39,902 nucleotides of DNA from Eubacteriales bacterium (GCA_045536155.1 JAZSMZ010000100.1:1-39902); one strand, 5' to 3'. Shown: positions 12,450 through 33,208, counted from the first letter of the stretch. The notes: a model not told the origin generated them from the letters alone. Program-made: numbers and translations.

Positions 12450-12620
12450 ATGATGTTTGCCTACGGCAAATGATGTTGGCTCTGCCAATGATGTTCGCTT
12501 CGCGAATGATGTGTGGCTTCGCCACATTTTGAGGCAAACATCACATCATTGCGGAACGCAGTGGAGCAACATCATATTTGCAAAGCAAATGCATCATATC
12601 GCCGTAAGGCGATGCATCAT
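12450..12620. repeat. Hairpin-punctuated 7-mer ladder: 4x ATGATGT then 4x RCATCAT
   Basis: ATGATGT at 12450, 12470, 12488, 12506; (A/G)CATCAT at 12543, 12569, 12591, 12614; short GC hairpins between copies. Confidence 0.85.
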
Positions 12621-12649
12621 TTGACAAACAACCTATTTTATGGTATAAT
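12621..12649 (+). promoter_or_regulatory. Sigma-A promoter of the four-helix-bundle gene
   Basis: TTGACA-17 nt-TATAAT with TG extension, abutting the last CATCAT. Confidence 0.8.
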
Positions 12650-12671
12650 AGCGGTGATAGGAGGTGTAGCT

Positions 12672-13025
12672 ATGAAAGAAAACAAACTCGTTGAGCTTTC
12701 AATGGAATTTTCCGTTGACATTATAAATCTCGTTAAATTTCTAAAATCAAATCACGAAACTATTATCGCTAACCAAATCGGCAGAAGCGGCACCTCAATT
12801 GGCGCAAACATTCATGAAGCGCAGTATGCACAAGGAACAAAAGACTTTATCTCCAAATTTGAAATTGCTCTCAAAGAAGCAAGTGAAACGGGATATTGGC
12901 TTGAATTGCTTTATAGAACCAAGTATATTGATGAGCAGAATTTCAAAGCGTTATCCTCTAAGTGTACTTCTTTGAGAGTTATGTTAATCGCATCTTGTAA
13001 AACCGCAAAGGAGAACGTAAAATGA
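12672..13025 (+). CDS. Four helix bundle protein (TIGR02436 / 23S rRNA IVS-like, Avd-like fold)
   Basis: QIGRSGTSIGANIHEAQYAQGTKDFISKFEIALKEASETGYWLELL; RBS AGGAGGT. Confidence 0.9.
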   Translation: MKENKLVELSMEFSVDIINLVKFLKSNHETIIANQIGRSGTSIGANIHEAQYAQGTKDFISKFEIALKEASETGYWLELLYRTKYIDEQNFKALSSKCTSLRVMLIASCKTAKENVK

Positions 13026-22705: not shown

Positions 22706-25700
22706 TTAATCTTCTTTTTTCTTTTTCGTCAAAACCGCAATAATCGCGATCAGGCAGCCAATGACAACAGCACCCGACGATCCGATCAGGTAAGGCGCCA
22801 GCTTCGACACATCTGACGTATTATCGCCGTCATCGGTTTCACTATCATCGGCAACATTGGTGGTATCCTTTACCGTAATGTATCCGCAATCATCGCACCT
22901 ATTATCTGAATCGGCATCTGTATGATTGCCATCGCCGCAATCCTTCCATACAGGCACAAGCTCGACATTTCCGGTAAGCTTATCGCCTCGTTTTACCGTT
23001 TCACCCGTTGCTTTGTCTACCCAACCCTCAAAGATATTTCCGTCTTCTTTTGGCGAAAGAGTGGGAAGCTCGGGAACCTTATTGTCTTTGCCCGAAGAAA
23101 GCATTTCCTTCACCGATGTATCTTTACCGTCCGACGGCGTATCGGGAGTATCACCGGTGTCGGGGGTTATAACGGGACGAGTGGGCAGCTTCGACACATC
23201 CTCGGGAATGGTAATTACAAACTTATCCTCAGGCTTTGTCAGCATGGGGATACTCTCTTTGAGCACATATCCGCATATCTTGCATTCTCTCTGCTTTTCG
23301 CCCTCAAAGGTATATCCGGCTTTTATAACAGTATTCCATTCGCCCATTTTGTGAGAGGACTGATCTTTTGTTTCGTGGCATCTCGAGCACTCTTTGTAGT
23401 GTCCGTCTGCGTCGCCGCTGTATACAAAATCATGACCCAAAGCGGCCTTTTCGGAATCGGTCCAGCTATGACCGCACGAACAGCTGTGAGTTGTATATCC
23501 GGCAGTAAGACAGTCGGGATTTACAACGGTGTCGGTATATTCGTGCTTATGTCCGCCGCTGAGACTGGGAATTGCTTCCTCTTTTTCATAGCCGCAATCA
23601 AGACATTCCTTGCTAATAATTCCTTCTTCACCGTCGGTCGCCTCTTTTACGACAACACCCGATCCGAAGATATGGACATCGGCATCGAGTCTTACTGAGC
23701 ATCCTTCGCTGCACACTCTCCAGTGCTCATTCTCGTCGTAATCAAATTCAAGCTCATCGGTGATGCAATGATTGCCCTCGGTGCAGTAGTGGCTCTTCCA
23801 TTCGTTACTTTCAATGCAAACTCCATGGTCGCATCCGTAATCGAGCGACAGCTCGGCACAGCAATCCTCGCACATATCACAGTCGGAGCAGGTATCGGCG
23901 CAGTTTTCGCATTTTCCGCATTCGGCACATACCGCAGCGCAGTCTGCGCACAGCTCACCGCAATCAGAGCAGAGATTGTCAATGCAATCGGAGCAATAAT
24001 GGCAGTCATCGCACATCTCATCGGCACAATCTATACACTTGCCGCAGTCGGGACAATATTCATTCGAGCAATCGCCGCATCTCTGGCAATCCTCGCACCA
24101 ATATTCGGCACAATCGTAGCAAATGAGTCCGCAGTCGGTGCAGATATCGGCACAGCTTACGCATTTCTGGCAATCCTCGCACCATGTATCCTCACCGGCG
24201 CATTCGCGGCAAAGTCCGCAGTCGGTGCAGAATTCGTCGGTACACGAGCTGCACTTTTCGCCGCAATCGGGACACATATCGGCGCAGTTTTCACATCCCT
24301 CGCCGCACACACAGGCAATTGCACAGTTTCCGCAAACTCCACATCCCGAGCAGAATCCATCTGCATCGGAGCAATCGCGGCAAAGTCCGCAATCGGAGCA
24401 GAACTCATCCGCACAGTTGGAGCACTTCTCGCCGCATTCCATACATACGTCCGCACAGTTTGTACATCCCTCGCCGCATGAGCAAACCATCTCGGCGCAG
24501 GAGTTACAGAGTGAACACTGTGCACAGAAGTTGCTTTCTCCCATACAGCTCATGCAAATGCCGCAGTCAACGCATATCTCCCCCTCCGAACACTGGTCAC
24601 AGTGCTCGCCGCATTCGGAACAAACAACAGAGCAAGAGGAGCATCCCATTCCGCAGTAGCATACCATTTCGGTGCAGTTTTTACAAAGCTGACAGTTGTC
24701 GCAGAAGTGTCCCTCGCCGCCCGCGCAGTCGCGGCAGATACCGCAATCGACGCAAAGCTCATCGGATGCACAGTTTGAACACTTTTCGCCGCATTCCGGG
24801 CAGATTTCTGCACAGTAGGAACAGCCATCACTGCACCCTACGCAGATATAATCTACACAGAACTTGCAAACACTGCAGTTGGAGCAGAAATCGTCTTCGC
24901 CGCCGACACAGTCACGGCACGTGCCACATTCTACACACAATTCGTCGGGTGCACAGTTAGAGCACTTTTCCCCGCACTCCTCGCATATTACCTCGGCGCA
25001 TTGATTACATCCGTTGCCGCAGGCACACAACACCTCAACGCATTCACCGCATTCGCCGCATTCGGCACAAAAATCACCGCCGGCACAGTCAAAACAGCGT
25101 TCGCACTCGTCGCAAAGTTCGTCGTCGGCACAATTTTCGCATTTTTCGCCGCAAGCAACACAGATAATCGAGCATTCCGAGCATCCATTGCCGCAGTAGC
25201 AGATTTGCTCAACACAGTTTTTGCAGTATCCGCAATCGGAACAATAATTACCCTCGCCGCCAACGCAGTCAAAGCAGGTTCCACACTCTATACAGATCGC
25301 ATCCTCTGCGCAGGCAGTGCATTTTTCACCGCATTCAGTACATACATATGAACATTCTGAGCATCCGTTGCCGCAGGCACAGACGTATTCCACGCACATT
25401 TTGCATAAGCCGCACTCGGCACAATAGTTTCCTTCGCCGCCTCGGCATTCGAAGCACACTTCACAGTCGCCGCAAAGCTGATCATCAGCGCAGTTTTCGC
25501 ACAGCGCACCGCACTCGGAGCATACAATGGCACACTCCGTACAGCCTTCACCGCATCCTACACAGACCTGATCTACGCAGAATTTACAAAGGTCGCAGTT
25601 AGCACAGTAATTTCCATCACCGCCCACGCAGTCAAAGCAGACTCCGCAGTCCTGGCAAATGCCACCGTCTGCGCACATTTCACATTTTTCACTGCACGAT

Positions 25701-26518
25701 TCACAGATAAGCACGCATTCGGTGCATCCCCTGCCGCATTCACATATGTAATCCGTACAGAATTTACACAGCAAGCATTCAGAGCAATAGTTTCCCTCGC
25801 CGCCGAGACAGTCAAAGCAGGTTCCGCAATCGGTGCAAAGCTCATCTTCCGCACAAACCATGCACTTTTCATTGCATTGCTCGCATCCTGTGGTACAATT
25901 TGAGCAGCCCTCGCCGCAGTAGCATATCCAGTCTGCACAGCCTATGCACAGCATACAGTCGGAGCAGTACAGCTCGTTACCCGCGCACTCAGCACAAATG
26001 CCGCAGTCGTCGCAGATAAAATCGACACACTCCGTGCATTTTTCGCCGCATACATCGCAGACATCGCCGCTTGTCGAATAACATCCGCGACATTTTTCGT
26101 CGCACTCGCAGCAGTCTTCAAGACAGTTGCCGCAGTCGTCGCACATCTCGTGATCGTCGTCACACGCGCCGCAATATCCGCAGTGATGCTCCTCGTAGCA
26201 GCTGCCTTCGGCTCCCTCACCGCAGTGATCGCCATTGTCGCATTTCCAGTCATCATAGCGATATCCGCCGCAGTACTCGCACTCAACTCCGTCTTCATAA
26301 TCGGCATAAACGGGAGTCGCGGTGGCTGTAAGCACTGCCGTGAGAATATCCTCAAGCACCGCTAAAAGGTCGATATTTTCATTTTCTTTGACCTGTTCTG
26401 CTTTGTCATGATCGATATCAAGATGCAAATGCTCGGCATTAAGGACATTTTGCATCGGGGCAATCATGAGTAATGCGCAGAGCACCAGGCTTAACAGTTT
26501 TTTTAATTGATAATTCAT
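22706..26518 (-). CDS. Giant cysteine-rich surface protein (signal peptide, ~60-aa Cys16 repeats, His/Cys repeats, InlB-B-like repeat, C-terminal TM anchor)
   Basis: MNYQLKKLLSLVLCALLMIAP signal; about 800 aa of CxxC arrays; C-terminal TM followed by KKKKED. Confidence 0.88.
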   Translation of the reverse strand: MNYQLKKLLSLVLCALLMIAPMQNVLNAEHLHLDIDHDKAEQVKENENIDLLAVLEDILTAVLTATATPVYADYEDGVECEYCGGYRYDDWKCDNGDHCGEGAEGSCYEEHHCGYCGACDDDHEMCDDCGNCLEDCCECDEKCRGCYSTSGDVCDVCGEKCTECVDFICDDCGICAECAGNELYCSDCMLCIGCADWICYCGEGCSNCTTGCEQCNEKCMVCAEDELCTDCGTCFDCLGGEGNYCSECLLCKFCTDYICECGRGCTECVLICESCSEKCEMCADGGICQDCGVCFDCVGGDGNYCANCDLCKFCVDQVCVGCGEGCTECAIVCSECGALCENCADDQLCGDCEVCFECRGGEGNYCAECGLCKMCVEYVCACGNGCSECSYVCTECGEKCTACAEDAICIECGTCFDCVGGEGNYCSDCGYCKNCVEQICYCGNGCSECSIICVACGEKCENCADDELCDECERCFDCAGGDFCAECGECGECVEVLCACGNGCNQCAEVICEECGEKCSNCAPDELCVECGTCRDCVGGEDDFCSNCSVCKFCVDYICVGCSDGCSYCAEICPECGEKCSNCASDELCVDCGICRDCAGGEGHFCDNCQLCKNCTEMVCYCGMGCSSCSVVCSECGEHCDQCSEGEICVDCGICMSCMGESNFCAQCSLCNSCAEMVCSCGEGCTNCADVCMECGEKCSNCADEFCSDCGLCRDCSDADGFCSGCGVCGNCAIACVCGEGCENCADMCPDCGEKCSSCTDEFCTDCGLCRECAGEDTWCEDCQKCVSCADICTDCGLICYDCAEYWCEDCQRCGDCSNEYCPDCGKCIDCADEMCDDCHYCSDCIDNLCSDCGELCADCAAVCAECGKCENCADTCSDCDMCEDCCAELSLDYGCDHGVCIESNEWKSHYCTEGNHCITDELEFDYDENEHWRVCSEGCSVRLDADVHIFGSGVVVKEATDGEEGIISKECLDCGYEKEEAIPSLSGGHKHEYTDTVVNPDCLTAGYTTHSCSCGHSWTDSEKAALGHDFVYSGDADGHYKECSRCHETKDQSSHKMGEWNTVIKAGYTFEGEKQRECKICGYVLKESIPMLTKPEDKFVITIPEDVSKLPTRPVITPDTGDTPDTPSDGKDTSVKEMLSSGKDNKVPELPTLSPKEDGNIFEGWVDKATGETVKRGDKLTGNVELVPVWKDCGDGNHTDADSDNRCDDCGYITVKDTTNVADDSETDDGDNTSDVSKLAPYLIGSSGAVVIGCLIAIIAVLTKKKKED
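23855..26285 (-). repeat. Coding tandem repeat, ~180-bp (60-aa) unit, about 11 copies plus degenerate flanks
   Basis: Unit e.g. NYCSECLLCKFCTDYICECGRGCTECVLICESCSEKCEMCADGGICQDCGVCFDCVGGDG. Confidence 0.85.
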
Positions 26519-26552
26519 AACGGTTGTTTTTCCTTTCATCAAGGCAAAAAAA

Positions 26553-27344
26553 TCAGAATTTGCCGCTGCGGCCTCCAACGGTCGTTCCCCGGCTTGTTTT
26601 ATGAGTAGACGATGACCCCGAGCTATCCGATCTTGCGCTTCGGTTCACCGTTCTGTAAAGGAAGAAGTCTTTGGAAAGATTAACATCAAAGCTTCCTTCC
26701 TTTGTGTAGTCTTTGGCATTCGCCTTATGTCTCACCGTTTTGAGCTTGGCTTTCTGCTTTGATACATAGATCCAGGCAGCCACAGCACCGATTATCAGAC
26801 AAATGATAAGATTTTGACCAAATGGAAAGGACTCTTTGGGAAGATCATCCTCATCGAAGGGATCTCCTGCTTTTGCCCGATTGATAAAGTTATCACAGCA
26901 ATCGACAAAAGCGCTGATTCCATTGAAGTAGTCATCGTTCGAAAGATAGGGCACAATCAGCTCGGATATATAATCAAATCCGACTTCTGTGACAGCGGTG
27001 ATACCGTAGCCCGCCGTTAAAATATGCCAATCACGTTCCTCCATGCTCAAAAACAGCATTATGCAGCTTCTGTCGACGCCAATGCCGTAGCCGTGGTACT
27101 CAAACAACTCTTCAGCATAGTCGGACGCAGAAGAATACCCGATTGAATCGACGGTATATACAACGACGTCAACGCCATGCACATTTCTTAACTCGTTTAA
27201 ATAGGCAAGAAGATAATTCTCCTCGGACATACTTAAAATATCGGCATCGTCGATAAGGCGAGGGCTTGTGCCGGATGCAAAAGAGGTAACAGATAGAGAA
27301 AGAAAAATGACAACGCAAAAAACAGCAATTAATACTCTTTTCAT
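26553..27344 (-). CDS. TPM domain membrane protein (YdjH-like)
   Basis: Signal peptide; RLIDDADILS...DVVVYTVDS...LSNDDYFNG; TM; Ser/Gly-rich tail ending GGRSGKF. Confidence 0.85.
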   Translation of the reverse strand: MKRVLIAVFCVVIFLSLSVTSFASGTSPRLIDDADILSMSEENYLLAYLNELRNVHGVDVVVYTVDSIGYSSASDYAEELFEYHGYGIGVDRSCIMLFLSMEERDWHILTAGYGITAVTEVGFDYISELIVPYLSNDDYFNGISAFVDCCDNFINRAKAGDPFDEDDLPKESFPFGQNLIICLIIGAVAAWIYVSKQKAKLKTVRHKANAKDYTKEGSFDVNLSKDFFLYRTVNRSARSDSSGSSSTHKTSRGTTVGGRSGKF

Positions 27345-27358
27345 TACATCCGCCTCCT

Positions 27359-28444
27359 TTATAAAAGCCACATTATCCATGATACCGCAAAGCAGGCGGC
27401 GGTTATTATTCCCGTCAGAGCAAGCTGAAAACGTCTCGCAGCGGCTTTATCGACCGGTAGATCACCTACAAATTTTCCGGTTTGACCGTTCATTGCAAAG
27501 GTGTATTTTTCACCGTTCCATGTTGTATTTAAAATCCACACCGGATAAAGGGCATATTTTGCATGACCGTTTTTCAACTGCAGAGCAGTGTTTTCGGCAA
27601 TTACCGTGTCATATCCGACAACACTTGACGCGAACGTCTCCTCGGTGCTCTTTTTGATTCGCTCGTTTGCCCTCTCAATGCTCTTTTCGGAATCGACATC
27701 ATATTTATCGGCAAGATATCCCGATAAATATGCGCTTTGGAAATCAAGAGCATCCGAAAAGCGATAGGGCTCGAGCGATTCCATCAGCGCATCGTCGATT
27801 TTCGACGAACCGTCAACGGGAACGTTTTCAAAGCTGACTTTACCACCTCGAACAACAGAATAAAATGATGTTTCGGTATAATTATATCTGCTGTCGCTCC
27901 AAAAACGTGTTTTCGATGCCTTATACCGAATCTGCGCCTCGGCATCGGTATCAAAAAGCCAAAACGGGACATAAATTCCCTTTACTTCTTCGATATGATT
28001 CTGATCTTTAAACGCCTGAGGCAAAAAACGCTTATTTCCGTAATGCTTTTTCAGCGCTTCGATTGCGGCCTTTTTATCCTGCTTGAACGGAATAACGTAG
28101 TCGGGCTTCAGTGCTCCCGAAAGCTGTCCTGTCATAATGATCGGATTGTCGCAATAAGGGCATCGGGAGGCGGCAGTGTTCACATCCGCAACTATTTCGC
28201 CGCCACACGACCGGCAACTGTATACCCGAAAATTCTCATTCTCCCCCTCGTCAAAGCGATTGCTTGTGTCCATCTCCCATTGCATATCATCGTCAATGGC
28301 TTCTTTTAACACATTATCATAAGAGGCGAGAGCTTCCATTTCAAATTCAGTGTCGCAATATGGGCACTTCATTTTCTGCAGATCGCTGTCGAAGGTTATC
28401 TCACCGCCGCAGCATGGGCATTTATATTCCAGCAGAGTTGACAA
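27359..28444 (-). CDS. Zn-ribbon membrane protein (YdjG-like)
   Basis: CPCCGG...CPYCD and CRSCGG...CPYCD ribbons; YVPFWLFD; FAMNGQTGKFVGDLP; C-terminal TM. Confidence 0.85.
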   Translation of the reverse strand: MSTLLEYKCPCCGGEITFDSDLQKMKCPYCDTEFEMEALASYDNVLKEAIDDDMQWEMDTSNRFDEGENENFRVYSCRSCGGEIVADVNTAASRCPYCDNPIIMTGQLSGALKPDYVIPFKQDKKAAIEALKKHYGNKRFLPQAFKDQNHIEEVKGIYVPFWLFDTDAEAQIRYKASKTRFWSDSRYNYTETSFYSVVRGGKVSFENVPVDGSSKIDDALMESLEPYRFSDALDFQSAYLSGYLADKYDVDSEKSIERANERIKKSTEETFASSVVGYDTVIAENTALQLKNGHAKYALYPVWILNTTWNGEKYTFAMNGQTGKFVGDLPVDKAAARRFQLALTGIITAACFAVSWIMWLL

Positions 28445-28467
28445 ACTCGCTCACTCCTTTTTATATA

Positions 28468-29346
28468 TTACTTTTTAAACTCAACAGCTTCATCAGTTGA
28501 AAACAGCTTGTATCCGCCACTGTTTTTGAGCAAAAGATTGCCGTTTGGCATAAAAGAGTATTCCAAACCGAACACCTCAGGCATATTCGACCAGCCCACA
28601 CGTTCAGACATGATGTTGATCGTTTTGCTTTGCAAATCTGCCGCACCCGCACCGATATATACCGATATTGGCTCGCCTCTATATTTGATGCACAGAACTG
28701 ACGTGCCGTTCTCGAAAAAACGTGCGCTTAGCTTTGCATCATCCGATTCGGCTTTCCACAATCCGACTATTTCCTCGGGGAAATTACCGTCAGACGTTTC
28801 CGATAAAACGCCTGTATACTGCGTCGGATCGTGGATAGGCCTGATACTCTCGTCGCGCATGTACCGTACAGCTTCGTTACCGTTTGCGATATATTCAAAT
28901 CCTTCGTCGTTGAGTGTTATGCTTACATCGGCGGTCTCTGGCCAATATTCACCGTCATACGAAAAGCCGGAAAAGGTTTTTACCGTAAAGTTCGCTCTGT
29001 CTGCCATTTCTTTTGCATTTTCGGCGCTTTCTTCAATCAGCTCGCAGGCGTAGTATGCGGCATATTGCTCTTTTACCTCGGCTATCAGCATTCCGCCGAT
29101 ATAATAAACTTGGCAAACTGTTTCGCCATTTTCTTCATCATATCTGCGGTATATTCCCTCGAGCCGCTCTGCAAATGAGGGGGTTTTTTCACTGCCTCCC
29201 GTCGTTTCGGCGATACTTTGTTCTTCATTTATATACGATTTTGTATCGTTTCCGACATCGTCGACATTGGGTACAGATTCTATGCATGAGGTAAGAAATA
29301 TCGCCGTCAGCAGCAAAATCAGTGCGATAAAGCGTTTGTTAATCAT
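28468..29346 (-). CDS. Putative lipoprotein
   Basis: MINKRFIALILLLTAIFLTSC lipobox. Confidence 0.75.
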   Translation of the reverse strand: MINKRFIALILLLTAIFLTSCIESVPNVDDVGNDTKSYINEEQSIAETTGGSEKTPSFAERLEGIYRRYDEENGETVCQVYYIGGMLIAEVKEQYAAYYACELIEESAENAKEMADRANFTVKTFSGFSYDGEYWPETADVSITLNDEGFEYIANGNEAVRYMRDESIRPIHDPTQYTGVLSETSDGNFPEEIVGLWKAESDDAKLSARFFENGTSVLCIKYRGEPISVYIGAGAADLQSKTINIMSERVGWSNMPEVFGLEYSFMPNGNLLLKNSGGYKLFSTDEAVEFKK

Positions 29347-30145
29347 TGTCGGTACGTGCATTTCCGCATTCAGTACAGAATTTACTCTTATTTACATTTC
29401 CGCATTCGCAAGTCCACTCATCATTTGGCAGCTGCTCATTTGAAGAAACGTCATCATTATTCTGCATTACGAAGGGAATTTGTCTTTTCTTCATCTGCTC
29501 AAAATAACCGGGGATAGGACCCATCTGTATTTCTTCGGGAGTCATTTTGTGCGTCCACTGACCAATGATAGATTTGAGCCCCAACATATCCATGTTTTGC
29601 TGAACATACAAATCTGAATCCTTGCTTTCGGGACGTTCACCGTTATTTAAATCGACACTTATCTCATCAAAATAAGGAGAATCGACCTTAAATGTAATAT
29701 GAAACTCGTATGCATAGCTGTATTTTGGAGGATCGTAGCTCTGCTCATTTCCGTCGCTGTCTTCGTAATACAGTTCTGTTTCGTTATCTTCGATTTCTGT
29801 TTCAAAGGAAAGTATCTGTGTGCAGTCGATAATGTCGGGATTATTTTCTTTGAAATCAGAACACGATGTAACGATCATTTTCTTTGCATTTGTATCCAAA
29901 TAGATCTTTTCATCTGTTCCAAAGCTGAGATCGGCATTGAAGAATTCAAGATTTTTGGCATTTTCTTCTCTGTATTGAAGCTGAGCACGTATTTCATCAA
30001 CAGTCGATGAGCGTCTTTCTGTGAAAAATGGAGAAAGCTTACGCGCGCAATTTTTGCAAAGATTGCCGTCCTCGAGCTTTTTGTTGCCTAAAAAGCCAAT
30101 TTTTTCACCGCATATATCGCAGTATTTCTTATCAAACAATCCCAT
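29339..30145 (-). CDS. DUF4428 domain protein with C-terminal Zn ribbon
   Basis: MGLFDKKYCDICGEKIGFLGNKKLEDGNLCKNC; tail WTCECGNVNKSKFCTECG. Confidence 0.82.
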   Translation of the reverse strand: MGLFDKKYCDICGEKIGFLGNKKLEDGNLCKNCARKLSPFFTERRSSTVDEIRAQLQYREENAKNLEFFNADLSFGTDEKIYLDTNAKKMIVTSCSDFKENNPDIIDCTQILSFETEIEDNETELYYEDSDGNEQSYDPPKYSYAYEFHITFKVDSPYFDEISVDLNNGERPESKDSDLYVQQNMDMLGLKSIIGQWTHKMTPEEIQMGPIPGYFEQMKKRQIPFVMQNNDDVSSNEQLPNDEWTCECGNVNKSKFCTECGNARTDND

Positions 30146-30159
30146 ATCTGTCTCCTTTG

Positions 30160-31548
30160 TTATTTAATGTCGTCGTTATCGAAAATATCGCCGCATTCGG
30201 GACAGAACTTCGGCGGCATTGACCCGCTTTCAACTTCCCATCCGCACTTATCGCATTTATACTGTGGAACGCCTGCCGGCTTTCTGGCACCGCATTCGGC
30301 ACAGAATTTACCCTTGTTTACATTTCCGCAGGCACAAGTCCAACCATCCTCGGGTCTCTTTGCTCCGCATTCGGGGCAGAATTTGCCTGTCGCTTTTGTA
30401 CCGCAGGCACAAGTCCATGCGTTGCTATCTTTGGCTTCGGGCTTCTTTGCTCCGCACTCAGGGCAGAACTTTCCTGTTGCCAAAGCACCGCAGGAACATT
30501 TCCAACCATTGCTCTGAACGGCAGAATTCTGCTGAGACTGCTGTTGCTGACCCATAGCAAAGAAATTCTGCGCGTTCGTGCCGCCTGCATTCATTGCCAT
30601 ACCCATTCCCATAAAGCCGGTCATAGCACCCGCTTCATTGGATGCCGCCGCACGCATTGCGTCTGCCTGCGCGCCGACAAGTGTTGCACCTGCCATTGTG
30701 GGATCGCGGTACATTGCGGTCTTCTGTGCAGTTTTGAGCATTTCCTGATCTTCTTCGGTGAGAGTAGGCGGATTGATTGCCACCTTTACATCACCGATAC
30801 CACGCTCGCCCCATTCGGAGCCGAGCTCATCGTTGAGATACTTTTCAAGCTCATTTGTATGTGCGGGAATCTGATTCGGACGGAGCTCCAGCTCGGAAAG
30901 TCTTGCAAGAGCCGGTCCGAGAGCGCTGACAAACTCGGTCTTCATTGTGTCGCGCAGCTCATCCTTGCTGTAAGAATGAGCAACGTTGCCCGTTACATTA
31001 GTGTAAAGCTTTATCGGGTCGGTTACACGGAAGGTATATGTACCGTTGCAGCGGAGAGAGACATCGACATCGAAGTTGATGCGCGAATCGACAACACGGA
31101 AGGAGATGGGTGTAGCTGTACCGAACTTATTGTCAAGAATCTCTTTGGTATTGAAGTAGTATACACGCTGATCCTTTCCGGTATCTCCGCCGTATGTAAA
31201 ACGCTTGCCAATTGCTTTAAAGCTTTCGAGAATACTCTTTCCCAAACTTCCTGCGAATATTGACGGCTCGCTCGAGCTGTTGTACGTATATTCGCCGCTT
31301 TCAGCGCAAAGCTCAACTACCTTGCCCTGCTCAACGATGATCATGCACTGTCCGTCTGCAACAGCGATGCCCGAACCGTTGGAGATGATATTGTCTTCGC
31401 CCTTTGTGTTCGAGGAACGTCCGCTTACTCTCTTCTGTCCCTTTACCACCAAAGTATCGTTTGCTATAGAATCACAATAGAAAAATTCCTTCCACTGGTC
31501 TGCCAATACTCCTCCGGCAGCCCCTGCAATTGCTTTAATAAGTCCCAT
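30160..31548 (-). CDS. SPFH/Band-7 domain protein with C-terminal Zn ribbons (YdjI / 'virion core protein'-like)
   Basis: MGLIKA...LADQWKEFFYC, NIISNGS, DQRVYYFNTKEI..NKFGT, AASNEAGAMTGFMGMG; four WxCxCG...GKFCxECG-type ribbons. Confidence 0.88.
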   Translation of the reverse strand: MGLIKAIAGAAGGVLADQWKEFFYCDSIANDTLVVKGQKRVSGRSSNTKGEDNIISNGSGIAVADGQCMIIVEQGKVVELCAESGEYTYNSSSEPSIFAGSLGKSILESFKAIGKRFTYGGDTGKDQRVYYFNTKEILDNKFGTATPISFRVVDSRINFDVDVSLRCNGTYTFRVTDPIKLYTNVTGNVAHSYSKDELRDTMKTEFVSALGPALARLSELELRPNQIPAHTNELEKYLNDELGSEWGERGIGDVKVAINPPTLTEEDQEMLKTAQKTAMYRDPTMAGATLVGAQADAMRAAASNEAGAMTGFMGMGMAMNAGGTNAQNFFAMGQQQQSQQNSAVQSNGWKCSCGALATGKFCPECGAKKPEAKDSNAWTCACGTKATGKFCPECGAKRPEDGWTCACGNVNKGKFCAECGARKPAGVPQYKCDKCGWEVESGSMPPKFCPECGDIFDNDDIK

Positions 31549-31580
31549 ATTTACCTCGCTAAATCTTTATTTCTGATAGT

Positions 31581-32063
31581 TTAGTCTGTTTTGCACTCTG
31601 CGAGCATTTCATTAAGAGCGCGCACAAATTCATGATAACCCTTCGGGAAATTGGCGGATCCGTCGGCACTGATCTTTTGACCGTTATTCACGCTCGCTGT
31701 GAAGTTGAACATAGTTCCGTCCAGTACATTCTTCGGATGCTTGCCGTGAAATCCGTCCCAACTGATAACTCCGCACAAGTTCATCAGATCAATGAATGTC
31801 TGAGTGTCGCAAGATGCGCTTTGTTCGGGAATAAGATCTGTTTTCTCACCCGAAAACACTTCGCGGTAACGCTCGATCTCCACCCTGCCCGCTTCGTTGG
31901 AGATTTCGTATACATAGCTGCCGCGCATAGTATGCAAAGTAAGTGTCACCGTTTCAAAAGAGGTAACTGTTTTTCCGGCGGCTTTTGCGCATCCGAATAT
32001 TCCCAATAATGTCGTTAGTATCATGGAGATTATCAGTATCCGTTTTTTATGCCCAAGGGTCAT
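31581..32063 (-). CDS. Putative lipoprotein/secreted protein
   Basis: KKRILIISMILTTLLGIFGC signal; start uncertain. Confidence 0.65.
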   Translation of the reverse strand: MTLGHKKRILIISMILTTLLGIFGCAKAAGKTVTSFETVTLTLHTMRGSYVYEISNEAGRVEIERYREVFSGEKTDLIPEQSASCDTQTFIDLMNLCGVISWDGFHGKHPKNVLDGTMFNFTASVNNGQKISADGSANFPKGYHEFVRALNEMLAECKTD

Positions 32064-32622
32064 CTTCTTTTGCCTTGCGAATTCCCACCATGAGGAACTG
32101 CTCCCACAAGAACCACTTTCCGTCGCCTCTTCTGCGCAAAACGATTTCGCGTGCATTATCTGCTCCGCCGCTCTTTATAAACAGCTTTTTATACCCTTCG
32201 TTTGCATCCGAATAAGGATTGGTTTCGATTGTGATGCTGAAGGGAGTGTCCGGAGTATAGTTGTTTTCGGGTACGGCACCCTTGAAATATGAAAAGGGAA
32301 CGTGATGTCCGTCGCGGAAGCGGTCATCAAGGAAGGAAATTGTCTGGTTGCTTAGCGGACTGGGACCGCTTAAATAGTTGAGCATCTCAATACCGATATT
32401 TTTGTCTGCCGCGTAAACGCAAAGTGCGCAAACGGTCAGAGCCGCAGTCTGAAAAGGTGTATCGAGAGCTGCCTCCGGCAATGCCTGAAGATCGGCAAGA
32501 CTTTCTGGAAGCGCTGTAAAAGTAAAGGTCTCTTTTTTCTGGGTAAGCGAATTCACCGCTCCGTTTGCTGTTGCTTTAAGTGCATCGTTAACACCTTTTT
32601 TTAGCTTATCAAAAATTGACAT
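32047..32622 (-). CDS. Conserved hypothetical protein (DUF6935-like)
   Basis: TFTFTALPESLADLQALPEA...TAALTVCAL...SYFKGAVPENNYTP...SGGADNAR (family recalled, not verified); RBS GGAGG. Confidence 0.7.
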   Translation of the reverse strand: MSIFDKLKKGVNDALKATANGAVNSLTQKKETFTFTALPESLADLQALPEAALDTPFQTAALTVCALCVYAADKNIGIEMLNYLSGPSPLSNQTISFLDDRFRDGHHVPFSYFKGAVPENNYTPDTPFSITIETNPYSDANEGYKKLFIKSGGADNAREIVLRRRGDGKWFLWEQFLMVGIRKAKEDDPWA

Positions 32623-32656
32623 ATCATTACCCTCCAAAATTAATTGTTGTTTATTT

Positions 32657-33208
32657 TTATTTCCATTCGTTGAACAGATCAAACACCGCTTTCATCGCAT
32701 CGAGCGTCAGAAATACGTGCTGATTGTTGTATGCGTATATTGACTCCGACGATGCATAACTGACATTGAGATAAGCACCGTACATATCGGGAAGTCCGCT
32801 GACAGAACAGCTGTATCCGTTATGCTGAGCCAGATCGTGTTTAATTACAATTTCATGAAGCTTTTTCATAAAACTGCCGTCGGCAACAAAGGAACGACTG
32901 TCTCCGTTTCCAAAGCGATCGCGCCATTTCATTTCGCAACCGACTTTGCCGTCTGAAATTTTGGCTTTGAAGCTGTACATTCCTTTCGCCAGATCGCCCG
33001 TATCGCCGAGAGCAAACAGCGAATAGGTCATGCAAAATTCTGTAACGTCGGTCGATTCGATCACTTTAGGAGCATCCTCGCCGCTGTTATAGTGCCTCAC
33101 ACCGCCGTCTATTACATCGCTTGGCCTTTTATCGCGGCGCTTTGCCGAGGCTATCAATATCGCACCGGCAATTCCCAAAATGCCGGCACCGACAATAAAC
33201 CATTTCAC
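32657..33208 (-). CDS. Membrane-anchored hypothetical protein
   Basis: GTG start after GGAGGCGGAGAG; N-terminal TM. Confidence 0.7.
   Translation of the reverse strand: MKWFIVGAGILGIAGAILIASAKRRDKRPSDVIDGGVRHYNSGEDAPKVIESTDVTEFCMTYSLFALGDTGDLAKGMYSFKAKISDGKVGCEMKWRDRFGNGDSRSFVADGSFMKKLHEIVIKHDLAQHNGYSCSVSGLPDMYGAYLNVSYASSESIYAYNNQHVFLTLDAMKAVFDLFNEWK

Follow-up and report, generated by a model that had tools for sequence, protein, structure and literature searches.

What holds together an apparently surface-anchored protein in which 237 of 1270 residues are cysteine, and what is it for? The question arises from a minus-strand gene in a 39,902-nucleotide stretch of DNA from a Eubacteriales bacterium (GCA_045536155.1 JAZSMZ010000100.1:1-39902), hereafter the window. 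The host is an uncultured, strictly anaerobic gut Clostridia bacterium that is Oscillospiraceae-like. The original prediction described a protein of ~1270 aa with more than 200 cysteines, ~230 by hand count; translation bore this out, giving 1270 aa that include 237 Cys (18.7%), with 20.6% D+E and 10% G. On the plus strand, translation of 22706-26518 met stops throughout. The ATG at 26518 is preceded by a ribosome-binding-site-like motif that the upstream in-frame TTG and ATG codons lack. The gene, its parts and its nearest neighbour are laid out as follows.

22706-26518, minus strand: full coding sequence of the 1270-aa Cys-rich surface protein, from the ATG at 26518 to the stop codon at 22706-22708 (ORF list and translation)
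26531-26534, minus strand: AGGA, resembling a ribosome-binding site, 12 nt before the start codon (ATG at 26518; read from the upstream sequence)
26435-26518, minus strand: signal-peptide-like N-terminus, ~aa 1-28, K-K followed by a hydrophobic run (sequence)
26297-26434, minus strand: His/Asp/Glu-rich stretch with an H-x-H motif, then a short hydrophobic segment, ~aa 29-74 (sequence)
25967-26296, minus strand: N-terminal Cys/His/Trp cap (aa 75-122) and one degenerate repeat unit (aa 123-184) (homologue conservation; unit HMM)
23843-25966, minus strand: 12 tandem units (aa 185-892), 56-61 aa long, with four Cys4 modules and 16 Cys per unit (autocorrelation, unit HMM, Cys parsing)
23249-23842, minus strand: non-repeat region towards the C-terminus, ~aa 893-1090, with modules that contain His and CxxC (sequence; conserved in homologues)
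22964-23089, minus strand: Flg_new-like segment (Listeria-Bacteroides repeat, PF09479), aa 1144-1185 (Pfam E 0.0086, 16.6 bits, below the cut-off of 27)
22727-22801, minus strand: C-terminal hydrophobic membrane anchor, ~aa 1240-1264 (sequence)
22709-22726, minus strand: short basic cytoplasmic tail, KKKKED (sequence)
26553-27380, minus strand: gene for a TPM-domain membrane protein, the neighbour on the upstream side at a distance of 34 nt (Pfam TPM_phosphatase, E 2.5e-25; context only)

The cysteine density had been called extraordinary, and within the genome it is, the next Cys-richest ORF having 70. Exported proteins of Firmicutes are usually Cys-poor: the available part of PMC2823432 gives a mean of ~0.5 Cys for those of aerobic Firmicutes and finds 33% of those of anaerobic Firmicutes to be without any, which makes the ~235 ectodomain Cys an extreme outlier. 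CxxC occurs 130 times, compared with 44.0 ± 5.5 (maximum 65) in 1000 composition-preserving shuffles. Tandem Repeats Finder detected no long-period DNA repeat within the gene, which argues that the repeats are old and diverged and did not arise by collapse or expansion in the assembly. Orthologues carry their units in collinear order with those here, at a non-Cys identity of 0.67-0.89 across units 1-7, where the mean for paralogues is 0.31. The CxxC excess, this collinearity and the lack of a DNA-level repeat indicate that the array is neither a chance occurrence nor an assembly artefact. The same sequence was also found in pieces in independent metagenomes.

Anatomy of the cysteine repeat

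Identity autocorrelation along the protein is maximal at a lag of 60. A unit HMM resolves 13 units, comprising one degenerate unit with a partial hit (aa 123-184) and 12 clear ones (aa 185-892); the tandem 60-aa Cys16 array of the original prediction therefore stands, the number of units having been estimated there at ~11. Successive cysteines within a unit are spaced 3,3,3,5,2,4,3,4,3,4,3,6,3,3,3,8, exactly reproducing the four quartets first read from the sequence, CxxCxxCxxC, CxCxxxCxxC, CxxCxxxCxxC and CxxCxxCxxC. In aa 80-905, we parsed 52 such quartets. Their common form is hydrophobic-C-x(1,2)-C-G-x(1,2)-C-x-x-C, a module of 14-15 residues that occurs four times per 60-aa unit with linkers of 3-8 residues; motif counts are 36 for CxxCG, nine for CxCG and 27 for modules that are exactly CxxCxxCxxC.

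Residues 80-905, hereafter the rod, include 147 LIVFMWY among 826 positions and 174 D+E versus 30 K+R, in keeping with the earlier description of an acidic chain with almost no hydrophobic core. The ectodomain holds ~235 thiols; its net charge, leaving thiolates aside, is -189. Across 113 three-unit segments, each of the 48 Cys columns is either invariant or conserved to 90% or more, and all 16 Cys are kept in 461 of 520 unique units. A survey of repeat number, as had been proposed, found 7 to 16 units across the family by the unit HMM.

Export, anchoring and distribution

The protein is predicted to be exported and surface-anchored. A signal peptide and a C-terminal TM anchor had been proposed, and both are recognizable, the first as K-K with a hydrophobic run and the second as aa 1240-1264 followed by KKKKED. 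The N-terminal segment is Sec-type, with the twin arginine absent, and TatC had no match in the genome. In 13 related loci the frame extends to the C-terminus, and 12 of these likewise end in a hydrophobic segment with a Lys/Arg-rich tail. SLH wall-binding domains (PF00395), a second and independent kind of surface anchor, occur in 98 of 120 homologues among the matches listed; the Pfam scan of the window protein returned no SLH domain, the TM anchor standing in its place. The swap of membrane anchor for SLH domains in some family members supports a surface location.

The Cys/His/Trp cap is conserved across TM-type and SLH-type homologues alike and, with the degenerate unit, is the membrane-distal end. 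An H-x-H stretch lies at the equivalent position in all five homologues fetched. The C-terminal non-repeat region is conserved in both anchor types and had no PDB sequence match; a neighbouring surface protein, o919, holds modules similar to those of this region. For aa 895-1215, the ESM Atlas look-alikes were Flg_new clusters (score 0.92).

The family is small, unnamed and undescribed, with all members from uncultured gut Clostridia. Its closest homologues reach 64% identity over the full length. The 18 related genome records are without exception MAGs of gut Clostridia, and near-identical DNA occurs in 18 runs from 13 studies of animal gut or faeces. The gene is single-copy in its genome, accessory and patchy, with the repeat in 14 of 300 same-family genomes. 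A TPM-domain gene lies directly upstream in nine of 18 related loci, and this neighbour is present in 196 of the 300 genomes; because the neighbours are uncharacterised and widespread without the Cys-rich gene, the context offers no functional handle.

Predicted fold and the case for metal

Pfam and NCBIfam gave no significant match, Flg_new being the sole Pfam row at E ≤ 1 for the complete protein. Against the PDB, the best phmmer hit had an E of 0.01, and a profile search placed a disulfide-rich Bowman-Birk inhibitor first (E 0.022), with the best zinc-ribbon row at E 0.22 and Csp3 rows at E 1.3 or more, all non-significant. By AlphaFold2, with a 113-row repeat alignment, aa 185-365 were modelled with a pLDDT of 95.0 and a pTM of 0.73; three of the five models in that run scored 84.6, 65.8 and 57.9, and an earlier run with 29 full-length rows reached a pLDDT of only 55. 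The model has almost no regular secondary structure, with no β-sheets and no β-helix; by DSSP, the pLDDT-95 model has isolated bridges only, from the residue before the first Cys to the third Cys of each module. In this prediction, each module is a knuckle hairpin with CxxC(G) at the hairpin turn.

A Foldseek search with the model returned 30 weak rows, all non-significant (E 1.3-9.5), which were zinc-finger-type domains or chains of complexes holding them (PHD, RING, LIM, FYVE, U-box, KAP1 RBCC, Pirh2 and GATOR2/SEA), with disulfide-rich proteins in none of the 30. VIA-align gave Z ≥ 2 for none of 48,161 chains, and none of the 30 Foldseek rows reached Z 2 on re-alignment. The structural check that the original prediction called for thus produced a confident fold that, as far as these searches show, appears to have no solved counterpart. 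Zinc knuckle, ribbon and cross-brace fingers (PHD, RING, LIM, FYVE, Pirh2 and the DnaJ Cys-rich domain) share with the repeat CxxC(G) hairpin knuckles, four-Cys groups and His/Asp as alternative ligands; whereas they are separate nucleic-acid- or protein-binding units, the ~52 modules here are contiguous within one putative extracellular, Sec-exported rod. Assignment to a known zinc-finger family was rejected (PDB phmmer E at least 0.01, Foldseek E at least 1.3, VIA Z below 2), the paired CxxC knuckles being present all the same.

Furin-like repeats are CxxC-rich. So are the Giardia VSPs, according to the portion of PMC2996952 consulted, and a CxxC-rich sequence alone therefore leaves disulfides possible. 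We nonetheless favour a metal-thiolate rod, most likely Zn(Cys)4, over a disulfide rod, on the indirect evidence of the Dsb/VKOR proteins not found, ligand swaps, Cys parity and the knuckle model. DSBA, DsbB, VKOR and Thioredoxin_4 had no match in the 95.15% complete genome, with hits in control genomes, an absence that rests on an incomplete MAG and is compatible with unrecognised oxidases or oxidation outside the gut. In module 1, the fourth Cys is His in five proteins. In module 2, 12 of 159 proteins have Asn for the second Cys, and in every one of them Asp occupies the G-x-G position, as it does in only 17 of 276 normal modules. In module 4, the second Cys is Ile in 104 proteins, with Asp-His ahead of the next Cys. 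These 15-Cys units are kept across species and carry a metal-ligand residue at or beside the lost Cys, and they probably trace back to just three or four events in evolution, passed down to many sequences. Ectodomain Cys counts are odd in 13 and even in 12 of 25 proteins, with no even-number bias in what is a crude count, its ectodomain limits coming from a regex plus a trim fixed at 45 aa. Of the two possibilities first raised, a metal-thiolate rod or a VSP-like stalk, the first is strengthened by the swaps, the parity and the missing Dsb/VKOR, and membership of the VSP family falls away.

Possible roles of the rod

Read jointly, these observations suggest a Sec-exported, membrane-anchored, acidic metal-thiolate rod that works as a stalk or coat, a reading to which we give roughly even chances. 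The protein would leave the cell by Sec, and its C-terminal segment would anchor the ectodomain in the membrane. Some 52 consecutive Cys4 knuckle modules would build a strongly acidic rod that makes up most of the ectodomain, held by tetrahedral metal-thiolate sites, with Zn(Cys)4 as the default, instead of a hydrophobic core or disulfides. Metal would be loaded after export, at roughly 50 ions per molecule, and the rod would hold the conserved His-rich/Cys-rich cap away from the cell. The outcome would be a stalk or coat that is stiff, polyanionic and probably resistant to proteases, and that is likely to buffer metal and thiols as a side property.

We speculate that such a role is akin to that of the Giardia VSPs. 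In VSPs and high-cysteine membrane proteins too, a signal peptide is combined with an ectodomain dense in CXXC, one C-terminal TM segment and a basic cytoplasmic tail that is very short; they likewise come from an anoxic gut habitat and vary in repeat number. The motif CxxCxxxCxxC, discussed for VSP zinc binding in the available part of PMC2996952, is that of module 3. In the same source, VSPs have a conserved C-terminal ~38 aa ending CRGKA, whereas the protein here ends KKKKED, and their mean CXXC density is 12.6 per kb (range 3.6-18.6), compared with 34 here. Unlike VSPs, the protein is bacterial and single-copy, with a strictly periodic Cys16 unit and no sign of antigenic switching seen. 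Membership of the VSP family (Pfam PF03302) was rejected, there being no Pfam hit at E ≤ 1 and no CRGKA end; the likeness is one of architecture only.

The same metal-thiolate architecture could instead have a chemical role first, binding thiophilic metals such as Zn, Cu, Cd and Fe at the surface with high capacity or serving a strict anaerobe as a sacrificial thiol or zinc-thiolate oxidant shield, like an extracellular metallothionein, which we consider possible but unlikely. Metallothioneins act as metal and oxidant buffers, and both they and Csp proteins combine very high Cys content, CxC and CxxC motifs and no hydrophobic core with metal-dependent folding; the protein here shares the first three and is expected to share the last. 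The thiols, quartets and negative charge of the ectodomain would suit a sink or shield, as would the His-rich H-x-H stretch found after the signal peptide both here and in the five fetched homologues, and patchiness is expected of a niche-specific protective trait. Yet a sponge could do without a conserved distal cap and without conservation of each unit by position, both of which are observed, the window showed no recognisable genes for metal homeostasis or redox functions, and no Pfam metallothionein matched at E ≤ 1. In contrast to metallothioneins and Csp, the protein is 1270 aa long, is anchored, has a periodic unit and conserves residues other than Cys; Csp proteins, moreover, are helical bundles, unlike the knuckle-hairpin model. 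Identity as a metallothionein (small, under about 10 kDa) was rejected on length and the lack of a Pfam family hit.

A metal-free, protease-resistant stalk stapled by two disulfides per four-Cys module, as in furin-like or TNFR-like repeats, VSP models and the beetle antifreeze β-helix, seems to us improbable. Disulfide-held, CxxC-rich extracellular rods are a known design, and furin-like repeats, TNFR Cys-rich repeats and the Tenebrio antifreeze β-helix each stack a short-period Cys-rich repeat into an elongated form without a normal core, as would the array here. The top PDB profile row, though non-significant, is the disulfide-rich inhibitor; zinc binding by VSPs, with their frequent CXXC, is reported as only substoichiometric in the available part of PMC2996952; and some Clostridia encode DsbA or VKOR homologues, as stated in the section of PMC12453122 consulted. 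Against this stand the disulfide machinery not found in the 95% complete genome, relatives all from anoxic gut habitats, Cys counts that are often odd, and 15-Cys units kept across species with His/Asp replacing or flanking the lost Cys. The confident model lacks β-sheets or a β-helix, and disulfide-rich folds are absent from the Foldseek rows and from VIA matches at Z ≥ 2.

Clostridial ferredoxins are acidic and Cys-rich with little secondary structure, and CxxCG knuckles are the rubredoxin motif too. To our knowledge, known exported cofactor-bearing proteins use Tat, and cluster self-assembly outside the cell is without precedent. An extracellular iron electron conduit, a chain of ~50 redox centres of Fe(Cys)4 (rubredoxin-like) or [4Fe-4S] assembled outside from gut Fe(II) and sulfide, would match that composition, those knuckles and the 27 exact CxxCxxCxxC modules, but we hold it very unlikely: CxxCxxCxxxCP is absent, no Fer4 or rubredoxin Pfam hit appeared at E ≤ 1 and neither fold is among the structural rows, the Sec-type signal and missing TatC would require clusters to self-assemble outside, no respiratory or electron-transfer genes lie nearby, and His/Asp swaps suit Zn sites better than cubane sites. 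Clostridial 2[4Fe-4S] ferredoxins and polyferredoxins are comparable to the protein here in acidity, Cys density and scant secondary structure. A designed 12-residue peptide with CxxCxxCxxC was reconstituted with a redox-stable [4Fe-4S] cluster, per the available part of the review PMC9933472, and CX2CX2CX2C is one half-site in a rare ferredoxin subtype in the portion of PMC8928951 consulted. The original prediction had set aside both ferredoxin-type spacing and a multihaem c-type cytochrome, and our counts agree: CxxCxxCxxxC occurs only five times, with no Fer4 hit and no structural match, and only two of the 130 CxxC are CxxCH (aa 836 and 1044). If true, the iron reading would equip a Gram-positive gut anaerobe with an extracellular electron wire that needs neither haem nor Tat.

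Should the quartets of the proposed stalk or coat bind metal, this would be, as far as our searches show, the first bacterial extracellular poly-metal-thiolate rod. It would offer a concrete system for the folding of metal sites after Sec export in anoxic habitats and for the surface handling of zinc, iron and oxidants by gut anaerobes. The compact, regular Cys4 module may also interest designers of metal-binding or conductive protein scaffolds. Metagenome assemblies from the human gut commonly contain SLH-anchored relatives, which takes the biology beyond a single MAG, and the likeness to Giardia raises the question of whether bacteria and this parasite have converged on CXXC-dense gut coats.

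The cysteine-rich gene and its repeat array

The cysteine-rich gene is one long open reading frame on the minus strand (22706-26518), with the plus-strand reading of the same coordinates ridden with stops in the ORF list and translation. It starts at an ATG at 26518, with AGGA 12 nt upstream, and encodes a protein of 1270 residues that includes 237 Cys (18.7%), 130 Asp, 131 Glu, 127 Gly, 55 Lys and 17 Arg and carries a net charge of -189. The N-terminus resembles a Sec signal, comprising K-K and a hydrophobic run without a twin arginine, and the C-terminus consists of a hydrophobic segment (aa ~1240-1264) followed by a KKKKED tail. The cysteines follow a spacing period of 3,3,3,5,2,4,3,4,3,4,3,6,3,3,3,8, and the identity autocorrelation of the protein peaks at lag 60, the length of a unit of four Cys4 modules. 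A unit HMM placed one degenerate unit at aa 123-184 and 12 full units at aa 185-892, with 52 four-cysteine quartets parsed in aa 80-905. The protein has 130 CxxC motifs, whereas 1000 composition-preserving shuffles average 44.0 ± 5.5 and reach 65 at most. The original prediction of an anchored protein built of such units was borne out in all its elements, save that it left the strand unstated and set the unit count slightly too low, at about 11 against 12 plus 1. It also rightly kept the protein apart from ferredoxins, as CxxCxxCxxxCP occurs nowhere in it, and from multiheme cytochromes, as CxxCH occurs only twice among the 130 CxxC motifs.

A module consensus was drawn from 113 segments of three units each, taken from the window and from related loci. 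In these segments, each quarter-unit opens with a hydrophobic residue, in the pattern hydrophobic-C-x(1,2)-C-G-x(1,2)-C-x-x-C, and the modules are joined by linkers of 3-8 residues, mostly Asp, Glu, Gly or Asn. All 48 cysteine columns of the three-unit alignment are invariant or at least 90% conserved, and in three of the four modules a glycine follows the second cysteine, with 59-88% conservation.

Tandem Repeats Finder detected only micro-repeats of 7-9 nt in the gene, and the units have therefore diverged at the DNA level; compared with one another, they show a mean non-Cys identity of 0.31. For each of units 1-7, the best match is the unit with the same number in the orthologues L006, L014 and L009, with a non-Cys identity of 0.67-0.89, which makes the array old and position-specific. 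Near-identical DNA is present in 18 public sequencing runs, which belong to 13 animal gut or faecal studies, and contigs from two DNA runs (two studies) tile the gene with few differences in pieces of 600-1600 bp, none of which spans the whole gene. An assembly artefact or recent repeat expansion is ruled out by the lack of DNA tandem repeats, the collinearity with orthologues and the independent contigs. One DNA run, X9, has an in-frame 18-nt insertion behind 23138, at a Pro/Thr/Asp-rich linker near the C-terminus, seen in one contig at a depth of 6.5.

By a crude ORF census of the organism's own genome (a MAG of 1.69 Mb, 95.15% complete), the gene ranks first with its 237 Cys, the next ORF having 70. 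Within this genome, the repeat is confined to the gene. The same census, which includes shadow ORFs, also lists long ORFs of 892-1190 aa with 53-70 Cys (~6%), all on the plus strand, at places C57 (from 20384), C99 (from 40554 and 37233) and C58 (from 9789).

Family, distribution and gene neighbourhood

A word-indexed protein search returned 266 proteins at E ≤ 0.001. The closest relatives share 50-61% identity over their full length and have no Pfam domain, and the only two of them with a source name are labelled as hypothetical proteins of Ruminococcaceae/Oscillospiraceae and Clostridia MAGs. Wall-binding SLH domains (PF00395), which replace the transmembrane (TM) anchor, occur in 98 of the 120 matches listed among the 266; the listed SLH-type relatives align at 40-46% identity over 68-80% of the query. 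The N-terminal Cys/His/Trp cap (aa 75-122), the repeats and the C-terminal His/CxxC modules (aa ~893-1090) are all retained in SLH-type sequences, and many contigs labelled human gut metagenome carry such relatives. An exhaustive phmmer search with three units against 1.84 billion cluster representatives gave only 13 matches at E ≤ 0.001, six of which also pass E ≤ 1e-10. P0129 and P0131 (~2% Cys), both among the 13, look spurious.

When 185,579 genomes, each standing for one species, were scanned for the pattern, at least 18 proved to carry a relative. Every one of the 18 is a gut MAG of an uncultured organism, filed under Oscillospiraceae, Eubacteriales, Clostridia, Anaerotruncus sp. or Candidatus Flemingiibacterium; the hosts are human, sheep, goat, roe deer and buffalo. 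Within the organism's GTDB family, the repeat profile matched 14 of 300 other genomes; at the level of genera, 12 of 97 had it, the organism's own included. Scanned in full against Pfam and NCBIfam, the protein yielded only a sub-threshold Flg_new; PDB sequence searches with the whole protein, its C-terminal 391 aa and the repeat profile returned nothing significant, the ESM Atlas offered no usable match for the repeats, and a description of the family was not found in the literature searched.

Repeat number, a survey of which had been proposed with the original prediction, runs from 7 to 16 units, and cysteine content from 145 to 289, in family proteins of at least 1000 aa. The SLH-type loci L024, L031, L034, L058 and others are 80-98% identical to one another yet hundreds of residues apart in length, their unit number varying from 7 to 12 and their cysteine count from 145 to 221. 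These differences indicate that whole units have recently been gained or lost among SLH-type relatives in human-gut populations. Truncated reading frames were seen in the metagenome copies L072, L074, L077 and L078.

In all 18 related loci, members of a single cluster are found upstream of the cysteine-rich gene. The cluster comprises o919, o194, DUF6935, o191, SPFH with double zinc ribbons, DUF4428, o144/o173, o361 and a TPM gene, the last being directly upstream in nine of the 18.

Features of the window (o-numbers denote neighbouring ORFs)
2362-3069, plus strand: Mob_Pre plasmid recombination enzyme
4005-5765, minus strand: large serine recombinase (Resolvase and Recombinase domains)
12513-13025, plus strand: 23S rRNA intervening-sequence family protein (PF05635), in a non-rRNA context
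26553-32682, minus strand: uncharacterised envelope-type cluster (DUF6935, o191, SPFH/Band_7_1, DUF4428, o297, o361 and a TPM-domain protein)
33238-35997, minus strand: o919, 919 aa, signal-peptide-like start, C-terminal TM segment and KKKK, 28 Cys
36193-37323, plus strand: HisKA_7TM-like 7TM region fused to a LuxR/GerE DNA-binding domain, divergent from the surface-protein cluster

Neighbour o361 was detected in 196 of 300 same-family genomes, the repeat in 14 of 300. Being so much less widespread, the cysteine-rich gene is an accessory addition, and gene context was rejected on these counts as a guide to function; the neighbours, all uncharacterised, say little about its role. At the head of the conserved cluster in most related loci stands o919, likewise a surface protein by its signal-peptide-like start, TM segment and KKKK, which belongs to no Pfam family and whose C-terminal third holds repeated His/CxxC modules resembling aa 893-1090 of the cysteine-rich protein. 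Judging by such sequences, the organism seems more generally tolerant of CxxC modules outside the cell. The SPFH/Band_7_1 protein ends in tandem zinc-ribbon repeats (20 Cys), and o361 combines N-terminal zinc ribbons with a C-terminal TM segment. Near the contig start, Mob_Pre and the serine recombinase suggest a mobile element.

About a fifth of the sampled sequence words are present in two metatranscriptome libraries from one study. Contigs from these RNA libraries show 0-3 differences inside the gene, and one (26366-26570) crosses the TPM stop and the start of the cysteine-rich gene; possibly DNA-derived, they are only a hint of transcription.

Predicted structure of the repeat

A first AF2 run, on an alignment of 29 full-length homologues, was weak (pLDDT 55.4), and the 113 three-unit segments then took the place of the full-length rows. 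With the segment alignment, the best model reached a pLDDT of 95.0 and a pTM of 0.73, and 172 of its 181 residues scored at least 90. Across the five models, the pLDDT was 95.0, 93.7, 84.6, 65.8 and 57.9. By DSSP, the best model has hardly any regular secondary structure, with isolated bridges every 6-8 residues that join the residue before the first cysteine to the third cysteine, module by module. In the model, this pattern is the predicted geometry of a CxxCG knuckle hairpin.

A Foldseek search, suggested for one repeat alongside the original prediction, was carried out with this three-unit model and produced no significant match, returning no rows from the PDB at E ≤ 0.001. The 30 weak rows (E 1.3-9.5) consist throughout of zinc-finger-type domains or of chains from complexes holding such domains, an identity that is no more than a hint. 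VIA-align placed none of 48,161 representative chains at Z ≥ 2, nor any of the 30 Foldseek rows upon re-alignment. A pLDDT-95 model with no structural match at all is unusual; as modelled, the repeat fold is apparently new, an absent match not amounting to proof of a new fold.

Proposed metal sites, competing readings and known systems

Of the 520 unique full-length units collected from 159 family proteins, 461 keep all 16 cysteines. Those Cys-loss variants that are kept across species leave 15-Cys units, and in them a residue of ligand type occupies the position of the missing cysteine or one next to it. In module 1, the fourth cysteine is replaced by His in five proteins (L011, L013, L019, L020 and P0021). 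In module 2, Asn replaces the second cysteine in 12 proteins, all 12 of which have Asp at the G-x-G position, a residue found there in 17 of 276 normal modules. In module 4, the second cysteine is Ile in 104 SLH-type proteins, with Asp-His right before the third. The variants are probably the product of three or four events rather than hundreds.

Only 147 of the 826 rod residues are hydrophobic, and something other than a core must therefore hold the rod together. Models for DSBA, DsbB, VKOR, Thioredoxin_4 and TatC match nothing in the 95%-complete own genome; the same models match 3-11 of 14 control genomes. A crude count of ectodomain cysteines in 25 proteins gave 13 odd and 12 even numbers, and the habitat of every relative found is the anoxic gut. 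Together, the absent Dsb-type genes, ligand swaps, parity, few hydrophobic residues and anoxic habitat favour putative metal-thiolate sites. Zinc is the default metal of structural Cys4 and Cys3His sites, and metal could plausibly be taken up after Sec export as a free ion but, to our knowledge, not as a pre-assembled cofactor.

We propose, with confidence that is about evenly balanced, that the protein would be exported by Sec and then anchored at the surface as a strongly acidic rod of ~52 Zn-type Cys4 knuckles. Tipped distally by the conserved cap rich in His and Cys, the rod would have the role of a stiff stalk or coat. Either a TM segment or SLH domains would provide the anchor, and rod length would be set by unit number. 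The same metal-thiolate chemistry would serve a metal or oxidant sink, which we consider unlikely as the main use. A rod stapled by disulfides, in the face of the observations that favour metal, is a decidedly doubtful proposition. An iron or iron-sulfur conduit could draw on the CxxCxxCxxC dodecapeptide that, in a passage of one review, holds a redox-stable [4Fe-4S] cluster (PMC9933472), but is highly improbable in view of the predicted Sec export, the TatC not found in the own genome, and the lack of ferredoxin motifs and of redox genes nearby.

Among known systems, zinc-finger, metallothionein, ferredoxin, cytochrome and disulfide-rod memberships each fail the tests run. A spore-coat-type cysteine-rich protein is ruled out by the signal peptide together with TM or SLH anchors, and a RiPP precursor with Cys-x-x repeats (PMC2674419) by size and architecture. 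For the proposed anchored rod, the closest analogy, and an analogy only, is with the Giardia VSPs, which in the passages on them in PMC2996952 have the same signal peptide, CXXC-dense ectodomain, C-terminal TM segment, tiny basic tail and gut habitat, and for which zinc binding is reported there as substoichiometric. The cysteine-rich protein differs in lacking the CRGKA tail and in having a CXXC density ~2.7 times the VSP mean in that source (PMC2996952); for these reasons, and with no family match, VSP membership fails. Structural Cys4 metal modules are already known, as are CXXC surface coats; what would be new, on sequence and model, is their occurrence in bacteria and, as predicted, outside the cell, within a new family whose fold is apparently new too.
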